Shown here: piece by piece, positions 30-36,736 of the stretch
Layout: each line of letters begins with the position of its first letter
Position numbering within the stretch: position 1 is the first letter of the stretch
Sequence record: OZ035822.1
Strand: one strand, 5' to 3'
Length of the DNA: 44,789 nucleotides
Source of the DNA: Vectrevirus PDP21P6
Made by a program: the position numbers and the translations under genes
Notes under the pieces: generated by a model
What the model was told of the DNA's origin: nothing
Seen by the model: only the letters and a program-made list of their open reading frames with translations
Databases searched by the model: none

Positions 30-329
30 GTGAGCGTACATAACAAACATGCAGCTACAGAAGACGAGGTTGGCATTCTGCATGGTGCTATTACCAAAAT
101 CTTCAATAAGAAAGCACAGGCAATACTGGACACTATAGAAGAAGACCCTGATGCAGCATTACATTTAGTGTCTGGTAAGGATATTGGTGCGATGTGTAAG
201 TGGGTTCTTGATAACGGCATTACCGCCACACCTGCTGCACAGCAGGAAGAGTCCAAGTTATCTAAGCGCCTCAAGGCTATCCGAGAGGCATCCAGTGGCA
301 AGATTATTCAGTTTACAAAAGAGGAGTGA
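30..329 (+). CDS. putative terminase small subunit (T7 gene 18 position)
   Basis: 99-aa ORF, GTG start with AGGAG RBS at 17-21; sits between holin and large terminase as in T7; no motif recognised, call is positional. Confidence 0.45.
   Translation: MSVHNKHAATEDEVGILHGAITKIFNKKAQAILDTIEEDPDAALHLVSGKDIGAMCKWVLDNGITATPAAQQEESKLSKRLKAIREASSGKIIQFTKEE
121..143 (+). promoter_or_regulatory. phage RNAP promoter embedded in terS coding sequence
   Basis: CAATACTGGACACTATAGAAGAA matches the genome-wide promoter core, predicted +1 G at 138. Confidence 0.55.
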
Positions 330-330
330 T

Positions 331-774
331 ATGCATAGATGGTGTGAATCTCAAGGTTATACCATCTTACCTTCTGGTGTCATCCTTTCAAAGGGTGGCA
401 CCCCTCTCAAACCATTCAAGGCGGGTAGGGGTTATTTAGCAGTTAAAATTAAAAATAAAGAAGGTAAATGGCGTAATGTCTATGTTCATCAATTAGTGGC
501 TTATAAGTATTTACCTAAAACTAATAATGAAGTAAACCACAAAGACGGCGATAAGCACAACAATGATGTTAGCAACTTGGAGTGGGTAACAAGAAGCGAG
601 AATAACTATTTAAAATGCAATGGAAATGATAGGAGTGCCTTAAATAGCTATTTAGCAAGATTAAAAGATTGCTTCTTGCAAGGTAAGGGTGTAGCAGAAA
701 CCGCTAGACTTACTGGTAAAAGTGAACCAAGAGTTTCTTCTCTCTTTAAGGAGTGGCGAAATGGCAAAGGCTAG
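331..774 (+). CDS. HNH homing endonuclease (HNH_3-like)
   Basis: ATG 331 after GAGGAG RBS; motif VNHKDGDKHNNDVSNLEWVTRSENN plus C-terminal HTH-like tail; inserted between terminase subunit genes, 3' end overlaps terL start. Confidence 0.75.
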   Translation: MHRWCESQGYTILPSGVILSKGGTPLKPFKAGRGYLAVKIKNKEGKWRNVYVHQLVAYKYLPKTNNEVNHKDGDKHNNDVSNLEWVTRSENNYLKCNGNDRSALNSYLARLKDCFLQGKGVAETARLTGKSEPRVSSLFKEWRNGKG

Positions 775-2659
775 AGAATCACAGGCAGAGGCATTAAAGC
801 GGTGGGAAAACCTTAAAGAACTACAAGACACTTTTAAATATACAGCGGAAGGTTTGCTTCTCTTTGCAGACACAGTTATTCATAACTTGATTGCAGGCAA
901 CCCTCATCTGATTCGTATGCAGGCTGATATCTTGAAGTTCCTATTCTACGGACACAAATATCGCCTCATCGAAGCGCCTCGTGGTATCGCTAAGACAACA
1001 CTATCAGCAATCTATACGGTATTCCGTATTATTCATGAACCGCATAAGCGTATCATGGTTGTGTCACAAAATGCTAAGCGAGCAGAGGAAATCGCAGGTT
1101 GGGTGGTGAAAATCTTTCGTGGCCTAGACTTCCTTGAGTTTATGCTGCCGGATATCTACGCAGGGGACCGTGCATCCGTTAAAGCATTTGAGATTCATTA
1201 CACCCTACGTGGTAGCGATAAGTCCCCCTCTGTATCCTGTTACTCAATCGAAGCAGGTATGCAGGGTGCTCGTGCTGATATTATTCTAGCGGATGACGTT
1301 GAATCGATGCAGAATGCTCGTACAGCAGCAGGCCGTGCATTGCTTGAGGAGTTGACCAAGGAATTTGAATCTATTAACCAATTTGGTGACATCATCTACC
1401 TTGGGACACCTCAGAACGTAAACTCTATCTACAATAACTTACCTGCTCGTGGTTACTCTGTTCGTATCTGGACTGCACGTTATCCTTCAGTGGAGCAGGA
1501 GCAATGCTATGGTGACTTCCTTGCACCTATGATTGTGCAGGATATGAAGGACAACCCCGCACTTCGCTCTGGTTATGGGTTGGACGGTAACAGTGGTGCA
1601 CCTTGCGCACCTGAAATGTACGATGATGAAGTGCTGATTGAGAAGGAAATCTCTCAGGGTGCGGCTAAGTTCCAGCTTCAGTTCATGCTTAACACTCGCA
1701 TGATGGATGCTGACAGATACCCACTTCGTCTAAACAATCTCATCTTCACTTCATTCGGTACTGAGGAAGTCCCTGTGATGCCTACGTGGAGCAACGACTC
1801 CATCAACATCATTGGAGATGCACCGAAGTATGGCAATAAACCTACAGACTTCATGTATCGACCTGTGGCTCGCCCCTATGAATGGGGTGCTGTTACCCGC
1901 AAGATTATGTATATCGACCCAGCGGGCGGCGGTAAGAATGGAGATGAAACGGGTGTAGCGATTGTCTTCCTGCACGGCACATTCATTTACGTGTATCAGT
2001 GCTTCGGCGTGCCAGGCGGATACCGCGAATCGTCCCTGAATCGCATTGTGCAGGCCGCAAAGCAGGCTGGTGTTAAAGAGGTATTCATTGAAAAGAACTT
2101 TGGTCATGGCGCGTTTGAGGCGGTAATTAAGCCTTACTTTGAACGAGAATGGCCTGTGACTCTGGAGGAGGATTACGCCACCGGACAGAAAGAGTTGCGT
2201 ATCATTGAGACGCTAGAGCCACTCATGGCGGCCCACAGGCTCATCTTTAACGCAGAGATGGTGAAATCGGACTTTGATTCGGTACAGAACTATCCGCTTG
2301 AGCTACGCATGTCCTACAGCCTTTTCAATCAAATGTCGAACATCACGATTGAGAAGAACAGCCTCCGGCACGATGACCGCTTAGACGCTCTGTATGGCGC
2401 TATACGGCAATTAACTTCTCAGATAGACTATGATGAGGTTACACGGATTAATCGCCTCAGAGCGCAGGAGATGCGCGATTACATCCATGCTATGAACACA
2501 CCTCACCTCCGTAGGGCGATGCTCTATGGAGATTATGGCACTGAGCGAAGAGTAACCAACACTTCCGTGGCTATGCAGCAAAGAGTGTACGGTCAGAATT
2601 ACAGGAGTAAATCGGCAAATCGAAATACACTTTCTGCAAGGATTTCAAGGACTTATTAA
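761..2659 (+). CDS. terminase large subunit (DNA maturase B)
   Basis: ATG 761 with AGGAG RBS 748-752; deviant Walker A PRGIAKTT and Walker B IILADDVE typical of T7 gp19-like terminases; 632 aa. Confidence 0.85.
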   Translation: MAKARESQAEALKRWENLKELQDTFKYTAEGLLLFADTVIHNLIAGNPHLIRMQADILKFLFYGHKYRLIEAPRGIAKTTLSAIYTVFRIIHEPHKRIMVVSQNAKRAEEIAGWVVKIFRGLDFLEFMLPDIYAGDRASVKAFEIHYTLRGSDKSPSVSCYSIEAGMQGARADIILADDVESMQNARTAAGRALLEELTKEFESINQFGDIIYLGTPQNVNSIYNNLPARGYSVRIWTARYPSVEQEQCYGDFLAPMIVQDMKDNPALRSGYGLDGNSGAPCAPEMYDDEVLIEKEISQGAAKFQLQFMLNTRMMDADRYPLRLNNLIFTSFGTEEVPVMPTWSNDSINIIGDAPKYGNKPTDFMYRPVARPYEWGAVTRKIMYIDPAGGGKNGDETGVAIVFLHGTFIYVYQCFGVPGGYRESSLNRIVQAAKQAGVKEVFIEKNFGHGAFEAVIKPYFEREWPVTLEEDYATGQKELRIIETLEPLMAAHRLIFNAEMVKSDFDSVQNYPLELRMSYSLFNQMSNITIEKNSLRHDDRLDALYGAIRQLTSQIDYDEVTRINRLRAQEMRDYIHAMNTPHLRRAMLYGDYGTERRVTNTSVAMQQRVYGQNYRSKSANRNTLSARISRTY

Positions 2660-4332: not shown

Positions 4333-4355
4333 ATTTACTGGACACTATAGAAGAG
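4333..4355 (+). promoter_or_regulatory. phage RNAP promoter
   Basis: ATTTACTGGACACTATAGAAGAG, +1 G at 4350, upstream of tailspike 1. Confidence 0.7.
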
Positions 4356-6427: not shown

Positions 6428-8224
6428 ATGCTTCAAAGATTAAGCACTGCCTTGGTGCGGTATAAAAGTAAAATGTCAGGTGCAATAGGTCGTATATTGC
6501 AAGAAAGACTAGAAGATACGTTAAATGCAAAAGACTTTGGTGCAAAATGTAATGGAGTGGATGATGATACAATCCCTCTCAACAATGCAGCAACAGCAGC
6601 ACGCCTTAAAGGAGTCAAACTCGTAATAACAGGGTCTTGCCTAACAACTGACACAGTTAACTTTAGAGAGGTACTGCTAGAGGCATCAAGTGCTACATTT
6701 ATTATTAAACACGAGGGTGTTGGTGTTATCTTGGGTGGTAATGCAAGTGTGCACAATAACCCCAAGCAAGAGTTTGGTATGACAGAAAGACTTGTTGGGT
6801 CTGCATCTCTAGACACCCCTGATGTACGTATAATGGGTGCCAAGTGCCAACACATTAGCATAGAGAAGTCTGATTACCTTCAGCTATATGCAGATTCAGA
6901 TGAATCAGTATATGAAAAGGACTACTCTATCGCGTATTCCACTTTTACCTTAAAGTATGTTAAAACAATCAACATACGCGGGATTAATCGTGGTTGGATT
7001 AATGAGAACCAGTTCTTCTTAAATAGAACACATTTTGTGACAATACAAGATGGCAATTACTCTCATAACCACAATAAATTCTTTGGTGGCACTATGGAAG
7101 AGAAAGGTGCTATAGATATACAGAGAGGTCATAATAATCACTTCTTTGGGCTTCGATTCGAAAGAGATGGCTCTAAGCCAGATAGAACACTAGACATCAA
7201 GTTTGGTTCTTATACATGGAATAATTCAATTGAAGCATCGTGGCTTAGCTCTGCTGCATATAGCAACGAACCATATAACCCAAATAATCTTGTCACTGTT
7301 ACAGATTTAGGTAGAGGTAATGCTGTACGCCATATACAAGAAGATTTAACAGATGAGATCCCTTTGCTTTCACTAAGTGGAAAGGCAGACTACATCTCTA
7401 GTACCAACCTAGGTACTGTAAGCCAACCTGTTGTTATAACTAACTTCCCTAATATATATAATATTAGACACCTAGTATCAAGCAAGTTTTCTGTTGTAAG
7501 AAATTTCTACCCTATATGGGAGTCTGGTAATTTAGAGGTAAGGAATGGAGACTTATTCACATTCTGCTCTGATGTACCTATCTTCCGTATGCGTCTATTT
7601 ATATTAGATGCGCAAGGTAATGTAATCACTGAGCAATTAGATGATGATGTATCATTCCCTGGTAGTTCTTGGAATGCACAATTAAGTATGTATACAAATA
7701 CTACCAATATTGATGTTGCTAAAATACGTGTCACTAATAGTTCTCGTATTAAATACATTCGTCTTGTCTTGATGTCTGGTGGTTCATCTCAAGATAGAGT
7801 CTTTGAATATGCAAGAGTGACTGCAAGATACTATAAGTATTCAAGCTCAACACCTCGTAAGAATATGGATGTTGCCTTAACCTCTTGCTCTGCTATTATG
7901 CCTTATAAGGGCGATGCAGAGATGCAATATATTGGTTACGGTCTGCCTGTTGTTAAGATGGAAGATACGACTAAGAAGGTTAATATAACACGTAATAGGT
8001 ATTCTGTTATTAATGTGTCTGGTTCTTCTATTAAGGTAAGGGTTTCAGGTAGTCTTATATCCGCAGACTCTAACGACTTACATCTTGTATATACAGAGGG
8101 TTCCGCTAATAAAATTATACCTATTCAGTCTTTATCGGATGATACTATTACTTTAACTTCTACTGCACCTACTACTATAGTAGCTAATAGCATGGTAGAT
8201 GTAGTTTGTACAAAGCAGGTGTGA
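6428..8224 (+). CDS. tailspike 2 (beta-helix depolymerase-like)
   Basis: ATG 6428 with AGGAGG RBS; N-terminal DFGAKCNGVDDDT pectate-lyase-like signature; 598 aa; no adaptor domain. Confidence 0.75.
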   Translation: MLQRLSTALVRYKSKMSGAIGRILQERLEDTLNAKDFGAKCNGVDDDTIPLNNAATAARLKGVKLVITGSCLTTDTVNFREVLLEASSATFIIKHEGVGVILGGNASVHNNPKQEFGMTERLVGSASLDTPDVRIMGAKCQHISIEKSDYLQLYADSDESVYEKDYSIAYSTFTLKYVKTINIRGINRGWINENQFFLNRTHFVTIQDGNYSHNHNKFFGGTMEEKGAIDIQRGHNNHFFGLRFERDGSKPDRTLDIKFGSYTWNNSIEASWLSSAAYSNEPYNPNNLVTVTDLGRGNAVRHIQEDLTDEIPLLSLSGKADYISSTNLGTVSQPVVITNFPNIYNIRHLVSSKFSVVRNFYPIWESGNLEVRNGDLFTFCSDVPIFRMRLFILDAQGNVITEQLDDDVSFPGSSWNAQLSMYTNTTNIDVAKIRVTNSSRIKYIRLVLMSGGSSQDRVFEYARVTARYYKYSSSTPRKNMDVALTSCSAIMPYKGDAEMQYIGYGLPVVKMEDTTKKVNITRNRYSVINVSGSSIKVRVSGSLISADSNDLHLVYTEGSANKIIPIQSLSDDTITLTSTAPTTIVANSMVDVVCTKQV

Positions 8225-8230
8225 GGTAAT

Positions 8231-8380
8231 ATGCCTTTAATTAAATCAGTTAAGCAAAGTGCTGTACGCCAGAACACAGAAGAACTTATTCAATCAGGAC
8301 GTGACCCTAAGCAAGCCTATGCGATTGCCAAGGATGTACAACGTCGTGCTATGAAGAAACCTTCTGCATCTTCTGCGTAA
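8231..8380 (+). CDS. hypothetical small protein
   Basis: 49-aa ORF, GAGGT RBS 4 nt before ATG 8231, starts 6 nt after tailspike 2 stop. Confidence 0.3.
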   Translation: MPLIKSVKQSAVRQNTEELIQSGRDPKQAYAIAKDVQRRAMKKPSASSA

Positions 8381-8450
8381 GCAGGTTAATATCTTAGTGT
8401 ACACAAGGGCAGACCTAGGTTTGCTCTTAGTGTATTTCAAAGGAGGTAAC

Positions 8451-8570
8451 ATGGGAGTGTTTAGCTTTATGTCAGGTACAACCAGTGATATGCCAAAGGA
8501 AGCATTCAGGAACTTCCTGATTATCGCAGGTGGAATCTTAGTGTTTTCACTAGTGCTGCTCACAAAGTAA
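8451..8570 (+). CDS. hypothetical small membrane protein
   Basis: 39-aa ORF with strong AGGAGGT RBS; C-terminal hydrophobic segment FLIIAGGILVFSLVLL. Confidence 0.3.
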   Translation: MGVFSFMSGTTSDMPKEAFRNFLIIAGGILVFSLVLLTK

Positions 8571-8984
8571 CCAAAGTCAAAATTTTGATATAGGCGTGTG
8601 TCAGCTCTCTCGCCCTCGCCCTCGCCGGGTTGTCCCCATAGGGTGGCCTGAGGGAATCCGTCGGAGACGGGTAGGGCTGATGTACTCCTTGTACTAGCTT
8701 AGTAGTACACAAGGGCAGGCCGTACTAGTTAGCTGGTACAGCCTAGTCTTTGCTCATGTACTAGCAAGGTGGAACGCCAGAGAGCGCCTAGGACGGCCTA
8801 GGGATGGCTTAGTGTTTGACAAGGTGAATGCCTTAGTGAAGCCTCTTAGTGCATTCCTGAGGCTATTCAGGGCCATTCCTGAGCGTTTGACAGGGTGGGC
8901 GTGGGTGGGCTATCTGTTCGTTTCGCTCCACTACGTTACGCTACACTCACCGCGCTCGTGTATCCTTGGTATAAACCTGATGGA

Positions 8985-9095
8985 TAGCTTAGGTTAACCT
9001 TAGTGGACTACCTTAATTAAAGCCTTAGTGCTTCACTTAGTATCAGCTTAGTAGTGTACCTTAGTTGGTCTTAGTGAATAGCCTTAGTGATTGCA
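8985..9095 (+). repeat. periodic array of CTTAGT(G) heptamer motifs
   Basis: about nine CTTAGT/CTTAGTG copies spaced 10-13 bp apart, with more copies scattered from 8393 to 10300; non-coding. Confidence 0.6.
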
Positions 9096-9316
9096 TAGCT
9101 AAAGCTATAAGATGCCAATAGGTCGCGGTCAGTAGACCGCTAAGAAAGAGAATAGTAATAAGATGCAGTAGGAGGGACACCAGAACACGGGACAACCTGG
9201 CCTCTCCTGTCTCTGTATCTATTACTTTCCTTAGTCTCACACGTTAGACAACCTAGGTTTCTCTTAGTAATTGTGACCTGTATCACATAAATAATCTATC
9301 TTAGTGAAACTTAGTG

Positions 9317-9345
9317 TTGACACAGGCAATCAACAGCTATACATT
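9317..9345 (+). promoter_or_regulatory. host sigma70-type early promoter
   Basis: TTGACA, 17-bp spacer, TACATT. Confidence 0.55.
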
Positions 9346-9493
9346 AGCAATCACTGAGGTGGACCTAGCAAGCTGCCTCAGGTTATAAGCAGGAGAATTG
9401 ATGCGTAAGCCATAGCTGGTGGATGTAGTCGCATGAAGGCTTGAGTAAGGGGCCGTTTAATACCTTCTTCCTCTGGAGACAACGCTTATAACA

Positions 9494-9508
9494 CCGCTCT
9501 TTAACAAT
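9494..9508 (+). promoter_or_regulatory. boxA-like antitermination element
   Basis: CCGCTCTTTAACAAT contains the rrn boxA core GCTCTTTAACAA; lies in the early leader. Confidence 0.5.
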
Positions 9509-9566
9509 CTGCTTAGTGTAACCTGTGTATGCCGTGGTTAATTACTTATTGAATGAGGAATTAACT

Positions 9567-9665
9567 ATGAATTACGAAAAACTGTATAAAGCCTATTACT
9601 ATAACGCATTAGTGAGAGGAGAAGAGCCTTTGTCTTTCGCTGAGTTTGTGGAGGCTTTATCATGA
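9567..9665 (+). CDS. hypothetical early protein
   Basis: 32-aa ORF, GAGGAA RBS, stop overlaps next start (ATGA). Confidence 0.3.
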   Translation: MNYEKLYKAYYYNALVRGEEPLSFAEFVEALS

Positions 9666-9847
9666 CACTGAATAGCCGTGAACTATCCGTTCTCTTCACC
9701 TTGTTATGCTATATGATATATAGAAATGAGTCACTCAGTGATGATGAGTTGTCTTTGTATCACCGCTTTCTTAACGATGGTTGGGTGGATACATTAAACC
9801 AGAAACGTGACTTGATGAAGGAGTTAATTAATGATTCAGTTAACTGA
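9662..9847 (+). CDS. hypothetical early protein
   Basis: 61-aa ORF, translationally coupled to the upstream ORF. Confidence 0.45.
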   Translation: MTLNSRELSVLFTLLCYMIYRNESLSDDELSLYHRFLNDGWVDTLNQKRDLMKELINDSVN

Positions 9848-9980
9848 AGACCAATTAAAGCAAATCTTAGTTGATGCGTGGTTTGCTGGTCATGAAACAT
9901 CTCAATACACACCTAACGCTTATGGCGATGCTAACAGATATGCACGTTCTGTATTAAAGGAGGTTAAAGAGGATGCATAA
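9831..9980 (+). CDS. hypothetical early protein
   Basis: 49-aa ORF, AGGAG RBS 7 nt upstream of ATG 9831. Confidence 0.35.
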   Translation: MIQLTEDQLKQILVDAWFAGHETSQYTPNAYGDANRYARSVLKEVKEDA

Positions 9981-10197
9981 ACACGAAATCTTTCTTAATT
10001 CAGGAAGTGAGGCACTCCGATTACTAGAAGATATGGAACAGGCTGGCGTAGCTGCTGACCTCACAACCTTTCTTCTGGACTATGACAGAGATTATTACCG
10101 CGTTACCTTAGTGACTGAGTATGATAACCAAGTCATCACTGAGTACTTAGGTAGTGAAGATTATGATTACGATGAAGTAATCACAACAAATCTCTAA
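9973..10197 (+). CDS. acidic early protein (DNA-mimic/anti-restriction candidate)
   Basis: 74 aa, AGGAGG RBS; strongly acidic, Asp/Glu/Tyr-rich C-terminal half; one of the first genes transcribed. Confidence 0.5.
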   Translation: MHKHEIFLNSGSEALRLLEDMEQAGVAADLTTFLLDYDRDYYRVTLVTEYDNQVITEYLGSEDYDYDEVITTNL

Positions 10198-12018: not shown

Positions 12019-12080
12019 CCTTATCGGTGGCATCTTCTTAGGTGTCACCTATTAAGGTTTCTTTAACGGGAGTACACAAA

Positions 12081-14708
12081 ATGCAGGACTTATACGCTAT
12101 CCAGCTTCAGCTTGAAGAAGAGATGTTTAATGGTGGTATCCGTCGCTTTGAAGCAGACCAACAACGCCAGATTGCATCCGGTAATGAATCCGACACGGCA
12201 TGGAATCGCCGCTTATTGTCTGAGTTAATCGCACCGATGGCGGAAGGTATTCAGGCTTATAAGGAAGAGTATGAAGGCAAGCGCGGTCGTGCACCGCGTG
12301 CATTGGCTTTCATTAACTGCGTAGAAAATGAAGTGGCAGCGTATATCACGATGAAAATCGTAATGGATATGCTTAATAATGATGTGACTTTGCAGGCTAT
12401 AGCCATGAATGTAGCTGACCGCATAGAAGACCAAGTGCGCTTCAGCAAGCTGGAAGGACACGCCGCCAAATACTTTGAGAAAGTTAAGAAGTCACTTAAG
12501 GCAAGTAAGACTAAATCATATCGCCATGCGCACAACGTAGCGGTCGTGGCTGAGAAGTCAGTAGCTGACCGTGACGCTGATTTCTCTCGCTGGGAGGCGT
12601 GGCCTAAAGATACCTTGCTACAAATCGGTATGACCTTGCTAGAAATACTGGAGAATAGCGTATTCTTCAACGGGCAGCCTGTTTTCCTCCGCACCTTGCG
12701 CACTAACGGCGGCAAGCATGGCGTTTACTACTTACAGACTAGCGAACACGTGGGTGAATGGATAACTGCATTTAAAGAGCACGTAGCGCAATTAAGTCCT
12801 GCCTATGCGCCTTGCGTTATTCCTCCTCGTCCGTGGGTTTCTCCGTTTAATGGTGGCTTCCATACCGAGAAGGTGGCGAGTCGTATTCGTCTGGTTAAAG
12901 GAAACCGCGAGCACGTCCGCAAGCTGACCAAAAAGCAAATGCCAGCGGTTTACAAGGCTGTTAACGCTTTGCAGGCGACTAAGTGGCAGGTTAATAAAGA
13001 GGTTTTGCAGGTAGTAGAGGACGTTATCCGTCTCGACCTTGGTTATGGTGTGCCTTCCTTTAAACCACTCATCGACCGTGAGAACAAGCCAGCTAATCCA
13101 GTGCCGTTAGAGTTCCAGCACCTGCGAGGCCGTGAACTTAAAGAGATGCTAACGCCGGAACAATGGCAAGCCTTCATCAACTGGAAAGGCGAATGTACCA
13201 AGCTGTATACCGCTGAAACTAAGCGCGGCAGCAAGTCGGCGGCAACCGTTCGCATGGTCGGGCAGGCCCGTAAATACAGCCAGTTTGACGCAATATACTT
13301 CGTGTATGCACTGGATAGCCGTTCACGCGTTTATGCGCAATCTAGCACGCTCTCGCCGCAATCAAACGACCTAGGCAAGGCGTTACTGCGTTTCACCGAA
13401 GGGCAGCCTCTAAATAACTCTGAGGCGCTTAAGTGGTTTTTGGTGAACGGTGCTAATAACTGGGGTTGGGATAAGAAAACTTTCGACGTCCGCACCGCTA
13501 ACGTGTTAGATGGTGAATTCCAAGACATGTGCCGCGATATTGCAGCCGACCCGCTGACTTTTACTCAATGGGTGAATGCTGACTCCCCTTATGGCTTCCT
13601 TGCATGGTGCTTTGAATATGCGCGTTATCTGGATGCACTGGATGAAGGCACGCAAGACCAATTCATGACGCACCTACCCGTCCATCAAGACGGTAGTTGC
13701 TCTGGTATCCAGCACTATAGCGCGATGTTACGCGATGAAGTAGGTGCGAAAGCAGTAAACCTTAAGCCTTCTGACTCCCCTCAAGATATTTATGGCGCGG
13801 TTGCGCAGGTTGTTATCCAGAAGAATTACGCTTACATGAATGCAGATGATGCAGAGACGTTCACATCTGGAAGCGTCACACTTACAGGTGCAGAACTGCG
13901 TAGCATGGCTAGCGCATGGGATATGATAGGTATCACTCGCGGATTAACCAAAAAGCCGGTAATGACCTTGCCGTATGGCTCTACCCGCTTAACATGCCGT
14001 GAGTCAGTGATTGATTATATTGTTGATTTGGAAGAAAAAGAGGCACAAAGGGCTATTGCAGAAGGGCGGACGGCTAATCCGGTGCACCCTTTTGATAATG
14101 ACCGTAAAGATTATTTAACACCGGGCGCAGCTTATAACTACATGACCGCGTTAATTTGGCCTTCTATCTCTGAGGTTGTTAAAGCACCTATAGTGGCGAT
14201 GAAAATGATTCGCCAACTCGCACGATTCGCAGCTAAAAGAAACGAAGGGTTAGAATATCCCTTGCCTACTGGCTTTATCTTGCAACAAAAGATAATGGCT
14301 ACCGACATGCTACGCGTATCCACTTGCTTGATGGGTGAAATCAAGATGAGTCTACAGATTGAGACTGATGTAGTGGATGAAACGGCAATGATGGGCGCTG
14401 CCGCTCCCAACTTTGTTCACGGGCATGATGCTAGTCATCTCATCCTGACTGTATGTGACCTCGTTGATAAGGGCATTACATCCATCGCAGTCATCCATGA
14501 TTCCTTTGGTACTCATGCAGGCCGTACAGCAGACCTGCGGGATAGCTTAAGGGCAGAAATGGTGAAGATGTATCAAGGTCGTAATGCCCTGCAAAGCCTG
14601 TTAGATGAGCATGAAGAACGCTGGTTAGTAGACACCGGAATCCAAGTGCCAGAGCAAGGAGAATTTGACCTTAACGAAATCTTAGTATCTGACTATTGCT
14701 TCGCATAA
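12081..14708 (+). CDS. single-subunit DNA-directed RNA polymerase (T7/SP6 family)
   Basis: motifs [37 protein letters not shown] and C-terminal ...YCFA; ATG 12081; N-terminus [16 protein letters not shown] resembles SP6-type RNAPs from memory. Confidence 0.95.
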
Positions 14709-34334: not shown

Positions 34335-36736
34335 TGGAAGTACAAGGTTCATTAGGTAGACAAATCCAAGGGATTAGCCAGCAGCCGCCAGCGGTACGCT
34401 TGGATGGTCAGTGCACAGCTATGATTAATATGATACCTGATGTAGTGAATGGTACTCAATCACGCATGGGTACAACTCATATTGCAAAGATACTTGATGC
34501 GGGGGCTGATGACATGGCTACTCATCATTATCGCAGAGGTGATGGTGATGAAGAGTATTTCTTCACGTTGAAGAAAGGACAAGTTCCTGAGATATTTGAT
34601 AAGTATGGGCGCAAATGTAATGTGACTTCACAAGATGCACCTATGACTTACTTAACTGAAGTAGTCAACCCAAGGGAAGATGTGCAATTTATGACTATTG
34701 CAGATGTAACCTTTATGCTTAATCGAAGAAAGGTAGTTAAAGCTCGTACTGATAAATCACCAAAGGTTGGAAATAAGGCGATTGTCTTCTGCGCCTATGG
34801 CCAATATGGGACTACTTATAAAATTATAATTGATGGCAATGTAGCAGCTACACGTACCACCCCTGACGGTGGTGAAGCGGGTCAAGTTGTAAATATAAGA
34901 ACAGAAGACATTACAAACCACCTTTATGATAGTTTACAGCAATGGAGTGGTATTAATGCCTACAACATCCAGAAAGATGGAACAAGTATCTTTATTGAAA
35001 AGAAAGATGGTAGCTCTTTTAATATTACTACAGAAGATGGTGCAAAAGGTAAGGACTTAGTAGCCATAAAGAACCGTGTAGCCTCTACCGACCTTCTACC
35101 CTCCCGTGCACCTGAAGGTTACAAAGTGCAAGTATGGCCTACTGGAAGTAAACCGGAGTCACGTTATTGGCTGGAAGCAGAGCCAAAAGAGGGGAATTTA
35201 GTATCATGGCAAGAGACAGTAGCGGCGGATGTTTTACTTGGCTTTGATAAAGGGACCATGCCGTATATTATTGAGCGTACAGGTATCATTGATGGTATTG
35301 CTCAATTTAAGATTAGGCAGGGTGATTGGGAAGACCGCAAGGTGGGGGATGACCTCACTAACCCTATGCCGTCTTTCATTGATGAAGAAGTTCCTCAGAC
35401 AATTGGCGGAATGTTCATGGTGCAGAACCGTTTATGCTTTACAGCAGGTGAAGCTGTCATTGCATCACGCACTTCCTACTTCTTTGATTTCTTTCGTTAT
35501 ACGGTTATCTCTGCATTGGCAACTGACCCATTTGATATTTTCTCAGATGCTAGTGAAGTCTACCAGCTAAAACATGCAGTGACCTTAGATGGCGCTACCG
35601 TGTTGTTCTCTGATAAGTCACAATTCATACTGCCAGGCGATAAGCCTTTAGAGAAGTCAAATGCACTGCTTAAGCCTGTTACAACATTTGAAGTGAACAA
35701 TAAAGTGAAGCCAGTAGTAACTGGTGAATCGGTAATGTTTGCCACTAATGATGGTTCTTACTCTGGTGTACGAGAGTTCTATACAGACTCTTATAGTGAC
35801 ACTAAGAAGGCACAAGCAATCACAAGTCATGTGAATAAACTCATCGAAGGTAACATTACCAACATGGCAGCAAGCACCAATGTCAACAGGTTACTTGTCA
35901 CTACCGATAAGTATCGTAACATAATCTACTGCTACGATTGGTTATGGCAAGGCACAGATCGTGTACAATCAGCATGGCATGTATGGGAGTGGCCTATGGG
36001 TACAAAGGTGCGCGGTATGTTTTACTCTGGTGAATTACTTTATCTACTCCTTGAGCGAGGTGGTGGCGTCTATCTGGAGAAGATGGACATGGGGGATGCA
36101 CTGACCTATGGTTTGAATGACCGCATCCGAATGGATAGGCAAGCAGAGTTGATCTTCAAGCATTTTAAAGCAGAAGATGAGTGGAGATCTGAACCACTTC
36201 CTTGGACTCCTACTAACCCAGAACTTTTGGATTGCATCTTAATAGAAGGGTGGGATTCATATATTGGAGGTTCTTTCCTATTCAAATATAACCCTAGTGA
36301 TAATACCTTGTCTACAACCTTTGATATGTATGATGATGACCGCGTAAAAGCGAAGGTTATTGTTGGGCAGATTTACCCTCAAGAGTTTGAACCTACACCT
36401 GTAGTCATTAGAGACAGGCAAGACCGTGTATCCTATATTGATGTACCTGTTGTGGGATTAGTTCACCTTAATCTTGATATGTATCCTGATTTCTCCGTGG
36501 AGGTTAAGAATGTGAAGAGTGGTAAAGTACGCAAGGTGCTAGCGTCAAACCGTATAGGTGGTGCTCTCAACAATACAGTAGGTTATGTTGAACCAAGAGA
36601 GGGTGTCTTCAGATTCCCACTGAGGGCTAAGAGTACGGATGCTGTTTATCGTATTATTGTAGAATCACCTCACACATTCCAGCTCCGCGATATTGAGTGG
36701 GAAGGGAGCTACAATCCAACCAAAAGGAGGGTCTAA
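34334..36736 (+). CDS. tail tubular protein B (gp12-like)
   Basis: 800 aa, start overlaps gp11 stop (TAATG). Confidence 0.85.
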   Translation: MEVQGSLGRQIQGISQQPPAVRLDGQCTAMINMIPDVVNGTQSRMGTTHIAKILDAGADDMATHHYRRGDGDEEYFFTLKKGQVPEIFDKYGRKCNVTSQDAPMTYLTEVVNPREDVQFMTIADVTFMLNRRKVVKARTDKSPKVGNKAIVFCAYGQYGTTYKIIIDGNVAATRTTPDGGEAGQVVNIRTEDITNHLYDSLQQWSGINAYNIQKDGTSIFIEKKDGSSFNITTEDGAKGKDLVAIKNRVASTDLLPSRAPEGYKVQVWPTGSKPESRYWLEAEPKEGNLVSWQETVAADVLLGFDKGTMPYIIERTGIIDGIAQFKIRQGDWEDRKVGDDLTNPMPSFIDEEVPQTIGGMFMVQNRLCFTAGEAVIASRTSYFFDFFRYTVISALATDPFDIFSDASEVYQLKHAVTLDGATVLFSDKSQFILPGDKPLEKSNALLKPVTTFEVNNKVKPVVTGESVMFATNDGSYSGVREFYTDSYSDTKKAQAITSHVNKLIEGNITNMAASTNVNRLLVTTDKYRNIIYCYDWLWQGTDRVQSAWHVWEWPMGTKVRGMFYSGELLYLLLERGGGVYLEKMDMGDALTYGLNDRIRMDRQAELIFKHFKAEDEWRSEPLPWTPTNPELLDCILIEGWDSYIGGSFLFKYNPSDNTLSTTFDMYDDDRVKAKVIVGQIYPQEFEPTPVVIRDRQDRVSYIDVPVVGLVHLNLDMYPDFSVEVKNVKSGKVRKVLASNRIGGALNNTVGYVEPREGVFRFPLRAKSTDAVYRIIVESPHTFQLRDIEWEGSYNPTKRRV

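Follow-up and report, generated by a model that had tools for sequence, protein, structure and literature searches.

A probable genome-end region with a collapsed terminal repeat in the record of Vectrevirus PDP21P6

Where does the DNA of a phage begin and end when its sequence record carries no duplicated ends? The question is raised by a 996-bp gap in the 44,789-nucleotide record of Vectrevirus PDP21P6 (OZ035822.1; the whole stretch is called the window here), which lies between the last late open reading frame (ORF), ending at 8570, and the first early ORF, beginning at 9567. A first-pass annotation had described this gap as about 1 kb without convincing ORFs and had proposed that it holds the physical ends of the genome, the window itself being a circularized or permuted representation. 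We find that the gap is very probably the genome-end ("concatemer junction") region of a podophage like K1E, K1-5, and SP6, in which the direct terminal repeat (DTR) has been collapsed to one copy in a rotated record. The kind of feature is already known: these are ordinary T7-type genome ends, and a collapsed repeat is a known effect of assembly. Strong comparative evidence underlies the placement of the ends, while the roles proposed below for a short-repeat array and a conserved noncoding block are what we infer from their conservation and position.

Placement of the terminal repeat

A megablast search with positions 8300 to 9600 returned 123 phage records, nearly all from Vectrevirus and Zindervirus (K1E, K1-5, SP6, and relatives; Autographiviridae, Molineuxvirinae), at 85 to 93% identity. 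Other parts of the window matched Vectrevirus genomes at 95 to 98%, and DNA identity between these genomes and the window overall was 85 to 97%. Six linear records of relatives have exact end repeats, namely, VEc3 (304 bp), mutPK1A2 (286 bp), K1E (288 bp), K1-5 (234 bp), SP6 (174 bp), and the Klebsiella phage K1-ULIP33 (MK380014.1; 163 bp). All six repeats start within 0 to 4 nt of one position (TCTCTCGG, TCTCGCC, CTCGCC, or TCGCC, with the short form TCTCTCG), and all end in ...GGGCTA, followed by TCTGTTCG (TCTATTCG in K1-ULIP33). These edges map to positions 8606 to 8610 and 8912 of the window, which places the DTR at 8608 (±2) to 8912 and makes it about 305 bp long. Virion DNA would accordingly start with TCTCGCCCTCGCC..., end with ...GTGGGCTA, and total about 45.09 kb. 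Judged by homology, then, the genome ends do appear to lie in the region that had been flagged.

Further records bear on the same edges. Two isolate genomes end at ...GTGTGTCAGCTC (CAGCTC), one of which begins with TCTCGCC, and the AAPEc6 record begins with TCTGTTCG and ends with GGGCTA. Among five metagenomic relatives, variation just ahead of TCTCG was limited to 6 nt. In a conservation profile drawn from an alignment of 13 phages (pairwise identity, 62 to 92%), the left edge (8568 to 8647) was 90 to 98% conserved and the right edge (8888 to 8927) 84 to 93%; conservation in the interior of the repeat fell to 17 to 50%, with many insertions and deletions and with repeat lengths of 163 to 304 bp in the relatives. 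Both edges were near-invariant in 14 relatives.

The record is also rotated. The window ends with sequence that matches VEc3 at position 36036 and begins with sequence that matches it at 36054, and when its end is joined to its start, the alignment to VEc3 is gap-free across the region from holin to small terminase. It follows that the window is circularly permuted, with its opening about 30 nt upstream of the small terminase gene and with the two terminal repeats of the virion probably collapsed to one internal copy. No terminal overlap of the window was found, nor was a second copy of the repeat (0 of its 20-mers are present twice in the window). The gapless match and the single copy bear out the proposal of a circularized or permuted record. 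Assemblers are known to turn linear genomes with short exact repeats into circles with one repeat copy and an arbitrary start (PMC3350473, PMC10438801). Positions 1 to 30 of the window lie inside the 3′ end of the holin gene, with the start of the small terminase some 30 nt on. Alignments of the nearest OZ0357xx Vectrevirus records (PDP21P3, LI10P5, LI10P3, and DIJ06P1) begin at the same position as the window, and this common start suggests a shared re-orientation step.

Coding potential for the gap was considered and rejected, as the ORFs called mechanically within it are broken in most of the 13 relatives and intact in only 1 to 3 of them; the description of the gap as lacking convincing ORFs is upheld. 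The GC-rich tract with GCCCTC repeats that had been noted there was recovered as well, with 63% GC at 8600 to 8699 versus about 45% for the genome and with the CTCGCC repeats called by Tandem Repeats Finder (Table 1). An Rfam scan of positions 8000 to 10000 gave no match at an E value of ≤1. A phage-polymerase promoter that could be the counterpart of phiOL or phiOR was not found in the gap, whether with ≤3 mismatches allowed against the SP6 consensus or with 1 against its core; those nearest the gap are at 4333 and 10756.

Signals at the edges of the repeat

Several conserved elements stand at the two edges (Table 1). The block outside the left edge includes a 12-bp palindrome, TCAAAATTTTGA, at 8577 to 8588. 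The CTCGCC tract is kept in all relatives (in SP6 as CTCGGC CTCGGC CTCGCC), and at the position of the inverted-repeat element, K1E and mutPK1A2 have a perfect palindrome, CCCCATATGGGG. The right edge of the repeat is identical in the six phages with exact repeats. The heptamer ATCTGTT begins there on the last base of the repeat and is preceded by T, as the published rule demands; it is the class II signal of T7 RNA polymerase, and the one natural copy in T7 lies in the concatemer junction (bioRxiv 10.1101/2021.01.11.426313, 10.64898/2026.02.12.705533, PMC11617373). Across the whole window, the + strand has one ATCTGTT and the − strand six, a bias that may reflect avoidance on the transcribed strand, with numbers too small for significance in one genome. 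Mutants of T7 RNA polymerase that are blind to ATCTGTT are defective in concatemer processing.

A perfect TTGACA at 8887 to 8892, 21 to 26 nt before the right edge, is invariant in six aligned SP6-like phages; K1-ULIP33 is without it (CTTGCGCGG). We rejected a host-type promoter made up of this hexamer and the repeat edge, given that the candidate −10 sequences (CTATCT and TATCTG) are poor and the T7-type extended −10 is absent. Since no usable −10 follows it, this TTGACA is probably part of the recognition block of the cut site and not a promoter.

Table 1. Features of the genome-end region and of the terminase genes, with window coordinates (a slash marks the inferred cut)
Feature	Position	Strand	Remarks
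Small terminase gene (T7 gp18 family)	30-329	+	Pfam PF11123 DNA_Packaging_2, E 3.6e-16; aligns to annotated VEc3 small terminase
Large terminase gene (T7 gp19-like)	722-2659	+	Pfam PF22530 Terminase-T7_RNaseH-like, E 1.6e-35
Segment A, hairpin	8397-8435 (as compared, 8393-8432)	+	Separates the last two small late ORFs; bordered by CTTAGTG
Conserved block outside left edge (CCAAAGTCAAAATTTTGATATAGGCGTGTGTCAGCTC)	8571-8607	.	91-98% conserved in 13 phages including SP6; putative recognition sequence for the left cut
DTR, single collapsed copy	8608(±2)-8912	.	About 305 bp; edges homologous to exact repeats of relatives
Three perfect tandem CTCGCC hexamers	8609-8626	+	Tandem Repeats Finder period 6, 3.0 copies, 100% matches; at inferred left terminus
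Inverted-repeat element CCCCATAGGG	8634-8643	.	+27 to +36 counted from 8608
Segment B, hairpin	8690-8776 (shared part from 8698)	+	Variable DTR interior; 19-nt inner hairpin inserted in loop
Conserved block at right edge, TTGACAGGGTG..GTGGGCTA / TCTGTTCGTTT	8887-8923	+	84-93% conserved in 13 phages; terminus inferred after 8912
ATCTGTT, class II pause/termination heptamer of T7 RNA polymerase	8912-8918	+	Overlaps inferred right-end cut site
(C)CTTAGT(G) array, nine copies	8988-9089	+	Starts 76 bp inside unique left end
Conserved noncoding block	9091-9185	.	81-94% conserved
Segment C	9230-9269	+	Conserved CTTAGTCTCACAyGTTAGACAACCTA..CTTAGT
Perfect CRP-type site TGTGA-N6-TCACA (TGTGACCTGTATCACA)	9272-9287	.	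29 nt upstream of −35 of early promoter
Early host-type promoter TTGACA-17-TACATT	9317-9345	+	Consensus scan 10/12; about 710 bp from inferred left end
boxA-like GCTCTTTAACAA	9496-9507	+	Early leader, downstream of predicted early promoter

Short repeats, the conserved block, and what they may do

Between 8393 and 9517, the + strand carries 19 copies of CTTAGT, versus about 0.44 expected at the + strand rate of the remaining sequence (Poisson P of ~1e-24), and the − strand carries none. Nine copies, seven of them exact and two with one mismatch (CTTAGG at 8988 and CTTAAT at 9012), form an array at 8988, 8999, 9012, 9024, 9036, 9047, 9060, 9070, and 9083. The successive spacings are 11, 13, 12, 12, 11, 13, 10, and 13 bp, and Tandem Repeats Finder did not call the array because the spacers differ. 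About nine CTTAGT(G) motifs at a helical spacing of 10 to 13 bp had been proposed; the nine copies and the range of spacings stand, but helical phasing was rejected, the mean spacing being 11.9 bp and the helical repeat 10.5. Elsewhere, four copies lie within the DTR and three are scattered to the left of it (8393, 8426, and 8537), two abut the −35 of the early promoter (CTTAGTGAAACTTAGTGTTGACA, 9300 to 9322), and one is in the leader at 9512.

The motif is not peculiar to the window. In each SP6-like phage examined, the 6- or 7-mer with the strongest over-representation in the junction region is CTTAGT(G); in T7, it is CCTAAAG. In the 13 aligned phages, 7 or 8 exact copies follow the repeat, 10 to 13 bp apart and always on the + strand, and the array starts 44 to 107 bp after the end of the repeat (70 to 107 bp in 12 of the 13). 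It is kept copy by copy in all 13, and K1-ULIP33 keeps it too. Hexamer columns are 97.9% conserved versus 77.1% for spacer columns (Mann-Whitney P of ~1e-12), which indicates that selection acts on the motif itself and points to sequence-specific recognition. Given this selection, the single orientation, and the spacing of about 12 bp, our best guess is that the array is a row of sites for a phage DNA-binding protein, which might serve end maturation or packaging or act on the DNA that goes into the cell first. A role in packaging specifically is possible, and we propose it only tentatively.

The noncoding block that follows the array, at 9091 to 9185, is the sole part of an 8960-to-9330 query that is still matched in Klebsiella phages. 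It contains a palindrome, ATAGCTaaAGCTAT, at 9095 to 9108 and a hairpin, GCGGTCagtaGACCGC, at 9125 to 9140 (GCGGTC-4 nt-GACCGC). Across 16 sequences, the palindrome is found as two alleles, ATAGCTaaAGCTAT and ACATGCaaGCATGT, with unrelated arms (ATAGCT/AGCTAT versus ACATGC/GCATGT) and a mosaic distribution among lineages; in this comparison its symmetry is kept and its sequence is not. Neither the hairpin nor the string AAGATGCAGTAGGAGG varies among the aligned sequences that bear the block, which the 16-mer helped select; a scan of viral contigs with this 16-mer gave 65 loci, of which 12 were true relatives and the remainder chance matches. Near-invariant, too, is AAGATGCAGTAGGAGGrACACC, present in the window as AAGATGCAGTAGGAGGGACACCAGAA at 9160 to 9185. 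A direct repeat of the form ATAAGATGC-(2-3 nt)-TAGG (TAAGATGC..TAGG) was also observed at 9108 to 9122 and 9159 to 9172, with the copies 51 bp apart and the second belonging to the invariant AAGATGCAGTAGGAGG. The block folds only modestly better than shuffled sequence (DNA fold z of −1.9).

Rather than serving packaging, the CTTAGT(G) copies might, together with this block and a CRP-like site, be control sites of early infection, bound for instance by a protein of the host or the phage that adjusts the early promoter or entry of the leading end, an alternative that we consider doubtful. In its favor, two copies abut the −35 and one lies in the leader, and both the array and the block lie upstream of the promoter, on the ~700 bp that enter the cell first. 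That promoter was the one sigma-70-like site found, with a −35 that is invariant in six phages, and a perfect CRP-type site stands 29 nt upstream of it. The CRP-type site is the sole match in the 44.8-kb window even with one mismatch allowed, and 7 of 13 relatives have it too, again 29 nt from the −35, whereas K1-5 and five others lack it. Measured from the start site that the −10 at 9340 to 9345 predicts, its center lies about 72 nt upstream; in class I CRP-dependent promoters, TGTGA-N6-TCACA is centered near −61.5, −71.5, or −82.5. The leader also has GCTCTTTAACAA, which is invariant in six phages, is present in K1-ULIP33, and is, we presume, identical to the rrn-type boxA antitermination sequence. 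However, CTTAGT copies also occur inside and upstream of the DTR, among late genes (8393 to 8850) and far from host-type promoters, the equivalent repeats of T7 likewise lie on both sides of its terminal repeat, and no protein is known to bind CTTAGT(G).

A more speculative reading, and a rather unlikely one as a whole, joins these elements. The array and the block at 9091 to 9185 would form one cis-acting module of SP6-like phages, perhaps for docking of the small terminase or for control of leading-end entry, in which the palindrome alleles would be interchangeable specificities and early transcription would be tied to host physiology through the CRP site and boxA.

The first-pass annotation had also reported three related segments of about 25 bp near 8393, 8695, and 9231 (segments A, B, and C). 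This holds in part. A and B are hairpins that have GTACACAAGGGCAGRCC in common (16 of 17 nt), and A and C have ACCTAGGTTT.CTCTTAGT in common, a likeness confined to the second half of A; B and C are alike through CTTAGT only. Hairpin A has a predicted RNA fold of −23 kcal/mol (z of −4.3) and was flagged as terminator-like. It is kept in VEc3 and K1E, its core stem is present in K1-5, and in SP6 it is altered on both arms; several of its G-U pairs can form only in RNA of the + strand. These changes on both arms and the G-U pairs fit an RNA element and not a DNA signal, so hairpin A is probably an RNA-level element concerned with processing, stability, or partial termination. Hairpin B (RNA fold of −38.9 kcal/mol, z of −2.4) is present in the window and VEc3 only, and a shorter related motif is found in K1E and mutPK1A2.

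T7 has an imperfect inverted repeat centered 190 bp upstream of its terminal repeat, and the loop of hairpin A lies 191.5 bp upstream of 8608, so hairpin A could be its counterpart. The T7 inverted repeat has been associated with a hairpin intermediate during duplication of the repeat. We think such a correspondence quite unlikely, and judge the likeness a coincidence, because the distance is not preserved in relatives that keep the hairpin (143.5 bp in K1E and 246.5 bp in VEc3) and because the stem needs G-U pairs that are present only in + strand RNA.

It is improbable, finally, that the short repeats and segments are functionless leftovers of local duplication or slippage in fast-evolving noncoding DNA. 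The insertions and deletions that fill the interior of the DTR (163 to 304 bp) and the resemblance of segment B to a duplicated hairpin A are what such a history might leave behind, but each copy of the array is conserved across genera, its hexamers are far better kept than its spacers, and all 19 CTTAGT copies are on one strand.

End formation and comparison with known systems

We turn to how well the genome-end reading stands as a whole. A number of points weigh against it or limit its precision. The placement of the ends rests wholly on homology to relatives, whose reported left ends differ by up to 4 nt. For UAB_Phi78 (NC_020414.2), an SP6-like phage in which Bal31 digestion and run-off sequencing located fixed ends (PMC4837284), the annotated repeat is 180 bp long, with its start displaced leftward by 15 nt and its end by 10 nt. 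Because of this shift, homology can be said to fix the ends to within a few bases and, at worst, about 15 nt. The UAB_Phi78 record opens with TAGGCGTGTGTCAGG, at a point 15 nt upstream of the left end of SP6 type, and contains the repeat just once, which is at odds with the other end-defined relatives. K1-ULIP33, a more distant relative, has ATCTATT where ATCTGTT sits, so that either the heptamer is not strictly needed or the polymerase of this phage reads a variant signal, and ATCTGTT is absent from the first 900 bp of the phiKMV genome. Short-repeat arrays had been expected to flank the repeat as in T7-like phages. The nine-copy array to the right of the DTR agrees with this, but on the right-end side the copies are just three and scattered, so arrays on both sides can be claimed only loosely. 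Lastly, a literature search gave no function for the short-repeat arrays of T7 or SP6; the genome papers of SP6, K1-5, and K1E lay outside that search.

The opposite reading, in which the phage packages circularly permuted DNA by the headful mechanism, the region is merely regulatory or an origin, and the circular record is a fair picture, accounts for a record that lacks duplicated ends and behaves as a circle, but it is highly improbable given that both terminase subunits are T7-type, that the edges of the exact terminal repeats in six close or more distant relatives recur base for base in the window, that the SP6-like UAB_Phi78 has fixed ends, and that assemblers collapse such repeats into circles.

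Genome ends of T7 type remain our preferred reading, and the transcription system of the window resembles that of T7 as well. Matches to SP6-type promoters number 8 on the + strand versus 0.01 expected, and 10 exact GACACTATAG promoter cores are present on that strand. An 888-amino-acid ORF at 12042 to 14708 occupies the position of the phage RNA polymerase and is assigned by that position. The window probably encodes a single-subunit RNA polymerase with promoters of its own, and all genes are on one strand.

On this basis, a course of end formation can be proposed. Replication would yield head-to-tail concatemers with one repeat between genomes, as is established for T7. Phage RNA polymerase moving rightward, from a nearest upstream phage promoter at 4333, would then meet ATCTGTT and pause a few bases downstream; what is observed here is the signal and where it lies, and the pause is carried over from T7. 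It is T7 genetics that links pausing to packaging. The T7-type terminase could next cut at GGGCTA/TCTGTT to make the right end and at CAGCTC/TCTCGCC to make the left end, with the small subunit acting in trans on the junction and the large subunit, which has an RNase H-like nuclease domain of T7 type and likewise acts in trans, presumed to cut both edges of the repeat. Likely recognition sequences, as judged from conservation, are the blocks beside each cut, the (CTCGCC)x3 tract, and CCCCATAGGG at +27. DNA synthesis would finally duplicate the repeat to give two copies per genome, a step known only in outline for T7. Packaging of T7 DNA requires the pac site and the terminal repeat (PMC13236587, PMC9860248), and a 2026 review describes the formation of T7-type ends as less well understood than cos or headful packaging (PMC13595956).

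For annotation, the record should be reopened at 8608 and given a second repeat of about 305 bp, for a length of about 45.09 kb, which would correct gene order, length, and comparisons; the true ends must also be known if the phage is to be reassembled from synthetic or PCR fragments, an approach already applied to SP6 (PMC9860248). More broadly, the end-processing layout of T7, with a TCTC left end, an element at +27, a pause heptamer, and a one-strand array, reaches into the SP6 group. What retains interest are the well-conserved and uncharacterized cis elements and the possible wiring of the early promoter through CRP and boxA, and the conserved array and block offer defined targets for deletion and binding experiments.

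Among known systems, P-SSP7 and the przondoviruses, T7-like phages with collapsed repeats in circular assemblies, present the same situation as the window, and nothing substantial differs. The likeness to T7 and T3 extends to many details. Both have a terminase of the same type and a left end of TCTC, and in T7 the C-run/ATA/G-run element CCCCCATAGGGGG at 26 to 38 takes the same position as CCCCATAGGG does here. ATCTGTT stands at 161 after the 160-bp repeat of T7 and at 232 after the 231-bp repeat of T3, whereas the DTR of the window is longer. The arrays of T7 and T3 consist, as here, of short one-strand repeats 10 to 13 bp apart just inside the left end; in T7 this is the CCTAAAG array at +14 to +194, of which the array here is the counterpart with CTTAGT(G) as its unit. 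T7 has short repeats flanking the terminal repeat on both sides, while those of the window are sparse on the right-end side. T7 also has an active cryptic extended −10 promoter in the junction (TGTTACAGT), to which nothing here corresponds (TGTTCGTTT). Host-type early promoters lie several hundred bp farther in than the array in T7 and T3, as in the window, but they number three there versus one found here, and phiOL, which stands between the array and the early promoters in both phages, has no phage-polymerase promoter found in its place in the window.

Close as well is the group of K1E, K1-5, SP6, and their relatives (Vectrevirus and Zindervirus, Molineuxvirinae). These phages have the same edges, CAGCTC/TCTCGCCCTCGCC... 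and ...GTGGGCTA/TCTGTTCGTTT, and also have in common with the window the CTTAGT array, the conserved block, the early promoter, and the boxA-like sequence. K1E, K1-5, and SP6 differ by insertions and deletions in the interior of the repeat (288, 234, and 174 bp, respectively) and by records in which the repeat stands at both ends, where the window, as a rotated record, has it once and internally. The repeat of VEc3, at 304 bp, is within one base of the length of the repeat described here.

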